A stretch of 64,000 nucleotides of DNA, taken from NCBI GenBank assembly GCA_036392215.1, contig DASVYJ010000027.1, forward strand, positions 15,637 to 79,636. The letters run 5' to 3'. Of the stretch, positions 52,116-52,451 are shown in pieces; within the stretch, counting starts at the first letter, position 1; the number at the start of each line of letters is the position of its first letter. Position numbers and translations under genes: made by a program. The notes under the pieces were generated by a model. That model ran no database searches. It was not told where the DNA came from and saw only the letters and a program-made list of their open reading frames with translations. The DNA is from Candidatus Limnocylindrales bacterium (GTDB lineage: Bacteria > Chloroflexota > Limnocylindria > Limnocylindrales > CSP1-4).

Positions 52116-52130
52116 GGGCCCATCCTACCA

Positions 52131-52160
52131 AACCTTGCCGTTTACGTAAAGGTTATGGTT
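52131..52160. promoter_or_regulatory. Perfect 10-bp palindrome TTTACGTAAA flanked by AACCTT / AAGGTT, about 20 nt upstream of the MerR start: candidate MerR operator in a divergent promoter region
   Basis: Seen in the sequence. Confidence 0.4.
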
Positions 52161-52233
52161 CTAGCTGTCGGCGTCCGGACGGGCTGCCTGTCCGTCGGGG
52201 CGCGCGCTCTGCCGAGCCCCGCCGAGGCGCCGC

Positions 52234-52268
52234 CCTGTCGCCTGTCGCCTGTCTCCTGTCTCCTGTCA
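52234..52268. repeat. Five tandem heptamers CCTGTC(G/T/A): CCTGTCG CCTGTCG CCTGTCT CCTGTCT CCTGTCA
   Basis: Seen in the sequence, between the MerR gene and the promoter of the downstream plus-strand operon. Confidence 0.6.
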
Positions 52269-52283
52269 ACCATCGCTTGTCCA

Positions 52284-52312
52284 TTGACGGGGGCGCGCGC
52301 CGCACCTAGCAT
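52284..52312 (+). promoter_or_regulatory. Sigma-70-like promoter: TTGACG, 17-nt spacer, TAGCAT
   Basis: Seen in the sequence, about 140 nt upstream of the ATG at 52452. Confidence 0.4.
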
Positions 52313-52451
52313 CCGCCCCTGCGCGCCGCCGCGGGTGCGCACCGGTCCAGTGCTCCAGCGCCGTCAGGCCATCGATGCCGCTCGTCCCCGGCGCCGCGGT
52401 CCCACCGCTGCCCGTCCGACGCGCGAGTGTGCCCAGCGGGGGGACCTGCCC

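Follow-up and report, generated by a model that had tools for sequence, protein, structure and literature searches.

The 336-bp gene-free gap at positions 52116-52451 of a 64,000-nucleotide stretch of DNA from Candidatus Limnocylindrales bacterium (contig DASVYJ010000027.1; the whole stretch is called the window here, and its G+C content is 73.7%) lies between two divergent genes, one encoding a MerR-family regulator and the other opening a two-gene cassette. This gap probably holds two independent control modules that were juxtaposed by genome rearrangement, with a young and mutable heptanucleotide repeat between them, a reading to which we give a probability of roughly two in three. An earlier note on this DNA had described a single divergent control region serving the MerR gene and a "novel operon", and had pointed to a palindrome, to five tandem heptamers and to a sigma-70-type promoter. 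These three elements are all present where the note had placed them, each beyond chance, and it is their union into one control region that is challenged here. Sequence features, their conservation, the linkage of the genes and the polymorphism of the repeat were all read directly from assembled DNA. The limits of the gap were set from third-position GC plots and open reading frame (ORF) lists, and the first cassette gene begins at ATG 52452, in the high third-position-GC frame of the plus strand. The genes on either side are as follows.

51570..52115, minus strand: MerR-family regulator gene, 181 aa, GTG start (Pfam and ORF list).
52452-55286, plus strand: gene for a 944-aa Zn_dep_PLPC-like protein (a weak match to Zn_dep_PLPC, its sole Pfam match).
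55283-56545, plus strand: gene for a 420-aa partner protein with no family in Pfam, which adjoins the first gene in homologous loci.

On the minus-strand side, merR is the first gene of a merR-MFS-MFS efflux operon, continued by two genes.

50104-51573, minus strand: MFS gene 1 downstream of merR (MFS_1/MFS_3 in Pfam; DHA2/EmrB subfamily model cutoff passed).
48617-~50080, minus strand: MFS gene 2 downstream of merR (MFS_1/MFS_3 in Pfam).

With the MerR protein as query, 80 loci were recovered from metagenomes. Downstream of the MerR homologue, 21 loci have a relative of the window's second MFS gene and 12 a relative of its first, and this linkage defines the regulon. The cassette, its partner gene and the gene for a BTAD protein that lies further downstream in the window were never seen beside MerR homologues in the scanned metagenome loci. 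MerR homologues always have MFS genes as neighbours and in no case the cassette, which speaks against the single divergent control region of the earlier note.

On the plus-strand side, the partner gene stands beside the 944-aa gene in 69 of 86 fetched loci, and among these 86 loci merR is found near the cassette solely in contigs nearly identical to the window. The closest distinct orthologue of the cassette occurs in locus L002, from a metagenome-assembled genome (MAG; GCA_936417055.1), and in L004, with 87% amino-acid identity. In L002 the cassette is surrounded by a kdp operon upstream and unrelated genes downstream, with no merR, repeat or SARP-like gene nearby. By blastn, L002 resembles the window at the nucleotide level only in 52318-55159 and 55497-56545; this similarity begins (at position 9866 of L002) approximately at the predicted transcription start of the cassette, ~52319, and ends at the stop codon of the second gene. 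Because similarity is limited to the cassette and its leader, and the flanks are unrelated (kdp in one case and merR in the other), the cassette, promoter included, acts as a unit that can be relocated. It would be a mobile or rearranging two-gene unit with an ordinary promoter and leader.

The first module would be built around an inverted repeat that is conserved together with the regulator. Its elements are the following, the -35-like hexamer having been assigned by eye.

52132..52153, both strands: predicted 22-bp dyad operator, ACCTTTACGTAAACGGCAAGGT on the minus strand (consensus match).
52141..52150, both strands: 10-bp perfect palindrome TTTACGTAAA, comprising one ACGT core and neighbouring bases.
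52145..52150, minus strand: inferred -35-like TTTACG, in the left dyad arm, 17 nt from the -10.
52122..52130, minus strand: extended -10 of the merR promoter, TGG-TAGGAT (layout conserved in homologues).

Upstream DNA was aligned for the best 32 MerR-homologue loci with enough upstream sequence, whose proteins are 49-75% identical to that of the window. The family consensus of the dyad is ACCTTnACGTnnACGTnAAGGT, with two ACGT cores and ACCTT/AAGGT outer arms, and the dyad of the window departs from it by a single mismatch (ACGG for ACGT). At least 15 of the 18 specified positions are matched in 30 of the 32 loci, and 13 positions are invariant across the 27 distinct sites. The two most distant loci, L116 and L119, retain the ACGTnnACGT core only (TGACGTGCACGTAA and CCTCACGTACACGTGAG). 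A search of the window for a second dyad, allowing up to 3 mismatches, found none, and no site at all is expected by chance. Judged by conservation, the 22-bp dyad is supported as the operator of this MerR subfamily. The L119 site resembles the tipA operator, which hints that a class of operators with ACGT cores may be common to several MerR subfamilies. Searchable literature returned nothing for the dyad sequence except unrelated primer matches.

This result both retains and corrects the earlier proposal that the 10-bp palindrome is the MerR operator. An inverted repeat conserved with the regulator does exist at this place, but the palindrome is not its centre of symmetry: the centre of TTTACGTAAA is 3 bp off the dyad axis, the dyad centre lying 3 bp to its left, and the same stretch is non-palindromic in most homologues (for example, TTTACGTGAA and TTCACGTATA). 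The palindrome is nonetheless rare by chance, being the sole match in the window even with 1 mismatch, against 0.02 expected. The hexamers AACCTT (52131-52136) and AAGGTT (52149-52154, overlapping the palindrome by 2 nt), which the note had described as flanks, are the true outer edges of the 22-bp dyad.

The dyad lies within the promoter that it would control and is conserved with its regulator. On the minus strand, the layout in the window is ACCTTTACGTAAACGGCAAGGT-TTGG-TAGGAT-GGGCCC-GTG, with 6 nt between TAGGAT and the GTG codon. Among the 27 distinct sites, a -10-like hexamer lies 4-5 nt past the dyad in every one (27/27) and takes the form TAnnnT in 25; it is preceded by TGn in 19; and the first ATG or GTG comes 6-10 nt after it in 25. 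This first RTG is in the MerR frame, and stop-free, in 28 of 30 loci. Such fixed spacing of dyad, -10 and start codon implies a leaderless merR transcript, which would begin at or beside the GTG start codon. In the public annotation, the identical MerR protein begins at ATG 52106 (178 aa), whereas the 30 homologous promoters favour GTG 52115 (181 aa) as the probable leaderless start.

TTTACG is the sole -35-like hexamer of the merR promoter, and an equivalent of it, TTnACG, is found 17-18 nt from the -10 in homologues, at 18 nt in most and at 17 in the window. MerR-activated promoters have spacers of 19-20 nt, and their dyads leave most of the -35 free. This canonical spacing was sought for merR and rejected, as no -35-like hexamer stands at 19-20 nt from the merR -10 in the window or in the homologues; the over-long spacer is thus not found here, insofar as the -35 was placed by eye. 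With a dyad that overlies the -35 and a near-optimal spacer, control of merR by occlusion or repression, relieved by a signal, appears more likely than activation through spacer untwisting. As a secondary possibility, this MerR subfamily, whose leaderless promoter has a spacer of 17-18 nt and is overlapped at the -35 by the operator, might act as a plain repressor. In the mechanism proposed here for the first module (52115-52153, minus strand), a MerR dimer would bind the ACCTTnACGTnnACGTnAAGGT-type dyad, which spans the -35-like TTTACG and the full 17-nt spacer and stops 4 nt short of the -10 TAGGAT, and MerR would regulate its own synthesis together with both MFS pumps. Protein binding, transcription starts and the direction of regulation are the inferred parts of this scheme.

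The second module, 52284-52451 on the plus strand, would consist of an ordinary sigma-70-type promoter and a leader of ~133 nt that drive the cassette.

52284..52312, plus strand: sigma-70-type promoter TTGACG-17-TAGCAT, predicted start ~52319 (promoter scan).
52319..52451, plus strand: leader of ~133 nt, alignable with L002 and contained in an 83%-identical blastn segment that reaches into the coding region.
52438-52444, plus strand: ribosome-binding site GGGGGGA (read from sequence).

TTGACG-17-TAGCAT is the sole sigma-70-like match in 51900-52700, and shuffled sequences give a mean of 0.0. The promoter read by the earlier note is borne out by the orthologue L002, in which TTGACG-18-TAGGAT occupies the matching position by the same scan, and CATTGACG is invariant in the alignment of the window with L002 and L004. 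The conservation of the leader with L002 is mere close relatedness. A structured leader or riboswitch was considered and set aside: its minimum free energy is no better than that of shuffles (z = +1.44), and the alignment fold, drawn from two distinct lineages, has one compensatory pair. Rfam gave no match on 51900-52700 at E values up to 1. A leader conserved across the whole family was likewise rejected, as the upstream DNA of homologues of <=70% identity is not alignable. Separately, a near-identical contig, L006, is one G shorter in the ribosome-binding site (GGGGGG to GGGGG, 52438), which makes a second slippage-type difference within the gap.

Between the two modules lies the heptamer array, which runs from about -85 to -51 relative to the predicted start of cassette transcription.

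52234..52268, plus strand: five CCTGTCN units, CCTGTCG, CCTGTCG, CCTGTCT, CCTGTCT and CCTGTCA (TRF period 7, 4.9 copies, 96% matches).
52269..52289, plus strand: degenerate in-phase units ACCATCG, CTTGTCC and ATTGACG, of which the last contains the -35 (the third copy in the repeat search is 75% identical).

It is the only period-7 array in the 64-kb window. Among 100 sequences of 64 kb simulated with a Markov model, the longest run of period 7 had 3 copies in 70, 2 copies in 29 and 4 copies in 1. The continuation of degenerate units in phase to the -35 may be chance. The array is absent from L002 and L004, and no comparable short tandem array was found in the 400 nt upstream of 80 other homologous cassettes; the three-unit pattern is confined to the near-identical contigs. 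Conservation of the repeat in related genomes, by which the earlier note had proposed to judge it, is therefore not what is seen: the array is lineage-specific and absent from the other homologous loci.

The near-identical contigs were assembled from seven sequencing runs, all belonging to one study, and over 3.3-3.9 kb they share 99.7-99.9% identity with the window. They differ in the array as listed here, where alleles are written as the seventh bases of successive units and g* denotes a first unit CGTGTCG.

Window, L001, L005 and L170: allele G-G-T-T-A, 5 copies.
L006: allele g*-G-G-T-A, 5 copies.
L003: allele g*-G-T-A (that of L006 minus one unit), 4 copies.
L167 (1-14) and L168 (1-28): contig breaks off within the array (Logan contigs, assembled from further runs of that study).

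The 35 bp of the array hold 2 of the 10 differing positions in L006 and 3 of the 5 mutational events in L003, a clustering with binomial P values of ~0.004 and ~1e-5, respectively, from comparisons that are not independent of each other. The breaks in L167 and L168 are what a branch in the assembly graph would leave where a sample is polymorphic, although low coverage is another possible cause. Collapse of k-mers is an unlikely source of the 4-copy allele, as the units differ at their seventh base and 31-mers across the array are therefore unique; moreover, this allele shares a C-to-G change with L006. The array thus has the marks of a mutational hot spot of the slipped-strand mispairing type, that is, of a polymorphic simple-sequence repeat. 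The slipped-strand idea of the earlier note is upheld insofar as copy number (4 or 5 units) and unit sequence vary among near-identical strains. The array would have arisen, and would keep changing, by replication slippage near the end of the similarity to the orthologous locus. It is probably not a conserved protein-binding site, and any effect on the promoter would be a side effect of altered spacing or sequence at -51 to -85. On this reading the repeat would be neutral.

Three other explanations were weighed against two juxtaposed modules with a slipping repeat between them. The array could be a phase- or level-variable element, whose slippage tunes or switches transcription of the cassette as do the 7-bp repeats of hmw1A and hmw2A, which we consider unlikely. 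In its favor, the array lies directly upstream of the cassette promoter, its copy number and unit makeup vary among contigs of 99.7-99.9% identity with the differences clustered inside it, and two contigs break within it. A precedent also exists in the hmw1A and hmw2A promoters of Haemophilus influenzae, where 9-28 units of 7 bp are found and their number correlates with transcript level (PMC2424069). With 4-5 units here against 9-28 in hmw, slippage should be infrequent (PMC2424069). The array is moreover upstream of the -35, neither between promoter elements nor in the transcript, no known operator flanks it whose spacing it would alter, the orthologous promoter is repeat-free, and no similar arrays occur elsewhere in the 64 kb. 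That 4, 5 or more units alter the output of the cassette promoter, so that the array truly tunes or switches expression in a free-living soil bacterium of the Chloroflexota, is regarded as rather improbable; if it were true, contingency-locus behaviour would extend beyond host-adapted pathogens. Alternatively, the array could be an iterated transcription-factor site through which, for example, the SARP-like BTAD protein encoded 4 kb downstream activates the cassette promoter. Direct heptamers beside a promoter, in the same window as a BTAD protein that aligns to residues 65-279 of AfsR, lend themselves to such a reading, and units three apart (21 bp) would lie on nearly the same helical face, with degenerate in-phase units reaching the -35. 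However, SARP sites are heptamers separated by spacers of 4-15 nt and usually overlap the -35 (PMC10972967), whereas here the units are contiguous (spacer 0) with a period of 7, and the good copies stop 16 bp before the -35 (52268 and 52284), which is reached by degenerate units alone (3-5 of 6 matches). The BTAD ORF shows no Trans_reg_C domain even at E = 10, and the BTAD gene is near the cassette in 1 of the 86 loci, elsewhere in that locus. No other homologue has the repeat in its upstream DNA, and CCTGTC shows no enrichment in the rest of the window, with 31 matches where 44.7 are expected. Nor would a functional site be expected to drop a unit and vary in sequence between strains so nearly alike. 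The SARP-type reading, which the earlier note had raised from the heptamers, thus fares poorly with contiguous units of 7-bp period, an array absent from the other homologous loci and a BTAD gene that is not a conserved neighbour, and we hold it to be very unlikely.

Many MerR regulators act on divergent promoters, and the genes here are divergent and share a 336-bp gap. MerR could govern both units from one operator, the region being a single bidirectional control region. Against this, the operator lies 130 bp from the cassette -35, no second dyad is found in the window even with 3 mismatches, MerR homologues are never beside the cassette, and the closest orthologous cassette is without merR. 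A plus-strand promoter using the mirror-image TTGCCG was also examined and discarded, since no -10 follows it at 16-19 nt. Integrated control by MerR is for these reasons judged highly improbable. The preferred reading, of two modules brought together by rearrangement, itself faces several difficulties. A single orthologous lineage (L002/L004) is close enough for its cassette promoter to be aligned, and the polymorphism is known at the level of assemblies, from short-read metagenomes of one study. The array, at -51 to -85, occupies the usual zone of class I activators, and in-phase units extend from it into the -35, so a lineage-specific regulatory role of the array is conceivable. Finally, the merR -35 placed by eye gives a spacer of 17-18 nt, atypical of MerR-activated promoters, which leaves the mode of action uncertain.

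The MerR protein matches MerR_1 (2.9e-21) and MerR (2.9e-12) in Pfam, and its closest solved relatives in a PDB comparison are TipAN, CueR and MtaN. It contains zero Cys residues, its C-terminus is helical only, no effector domain was recognised by Pfam, and no NCBIfam equivalog cutoff was reached. Genes for a multicopper oxidase and a universal stress protein (Pfam) occupy 46645-48539, just past the MFS genes, and no link between them and the Cys-free MerR protein was found.

The 944-aa protein of the cassette has hundreds of homologues in Chloroflexota, Actinomycetota, Proteobacteria, Acidobacteriota and some fungi, the fungal ones (Drechslerella, Dactylella, Trapelia, Fusarium) being 52-56% identical. 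A 944-aa member of its 90%-identity cluster, 100% identical to it by tblastn, is assigned at NCBI to a Candidatus Limnocylindrales MAG, and its closest relatives at species level are Chloroflexi/Chloroflexia MAGs, so the source is most likely a member of the Chloroflexota and not a Streptomyces. NCBIfam gave no match for the cassette proteins. The N-terminus of the partner is a His/Cys-rich tail, MSDERHEHHEHGHHEHGHHEHHEHDCHDEHHHHCH (window 55283-55400), encoded by tandem repeats at 55290-55354 (TRF). This tail suggests metal binding by the 420-aa partner beside what looks like a zinc-phospholipase-like enzyme. The BTAD gene follows the cassette.

56695-57467: BTAD gene, 256 aa, probable ATG 56695, ribosome-binding site GGGGAGA, after a 149-bp gap (BTAD 1.4e-13).

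Its product aligns to AfsR from residue 65 (65-279), and no winged-helix domain is detected by Pfam; it could be either a small SARP of divergent sequence or a protein with BTAD alone. In another lineage, locus L050, three direct repeats of 11-nt period (GCCGCCGTACA, CCCGCCGTACA, CCCGCCGTACA) lie ~193 nt upstream of a cassette homologue, a spacing that would be expected of OmpR- or SARP-type sites.

Altogether, the apparent "divergent control region", or "novel operon with a SARP", is probably an accident of gene order, and recognising it as such guards against over-reading the locus. A precise operator consensus, ACCTTnACGTnnACGTnAAGGT, and a promoter layout are proposed for a MerR subfamily, so far uncharacterised, whose genes accompany those of MFS pumps in uncultured soil bacteria; the consensus aids regulon prediction and backs the GTG 52115 start. 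The cassette, widespread in bacterial phyla and fungi and with no assigned function, is probably a larger puzzle than the control region.

Several known systems can be compared with the gap. Like the hmw1A/hmw2A repeats and the TAAA repeat of nadA in Neisseria meningitidis, the array is a tandem repeat in a control region whose unit number varies between strains (PMC2424069, PMC8262952, PMC2791445). Unlike hmw, it has 4-5 units and no known flanking operators, and the repeat is absent in the nearest orthologue; unlike both hmw and nadA, it belongs to a high-GC MAG of free-living Chloroflexota, not to a host-adapted pathogen. With the sites of SARP regulators (ActII-ORF4, DnrI, AfsR, PimR) it shares heptameric direct repeats upstream of a promoter and a BTAD protein encoded nearby, and it differs from them in its contiguous 7-bp period, compared with 10-11 bp or more, in good copies that stay off the -35, and in being polymorphic and non-conserved. 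The merR module resembles PmerT (MerR), PcopA (CueR) and ptipA (TipAL), with a helix-turn-helix regulator of the MerR family and a long dyad inside the promoter, between the -35 and -10 regions, and it resembles BmrR and Mta in the linkage of the regulator to multidrug-type efflux genes. Its ACCTT/AAGGT outer arms are presumably like the CueR box, and its ACGT cores like the tipA operator. In contrast with the PmerT class, its spacer is of 17-18 nt, not 19-20, and its transcript is probably leaderless; the 22-bp dyad takes in the entire -35-like hexamer, its centre being shifted ~4 bp upstream relative to PmerT, and the protein, unlike the regulators of PmerT, PcopA and ptipA, has no Cys and no recognised effector domain. 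All the kinds of control element described here are already known, and what is new in detail is the operator consensus and the polymorphism of the repeat.

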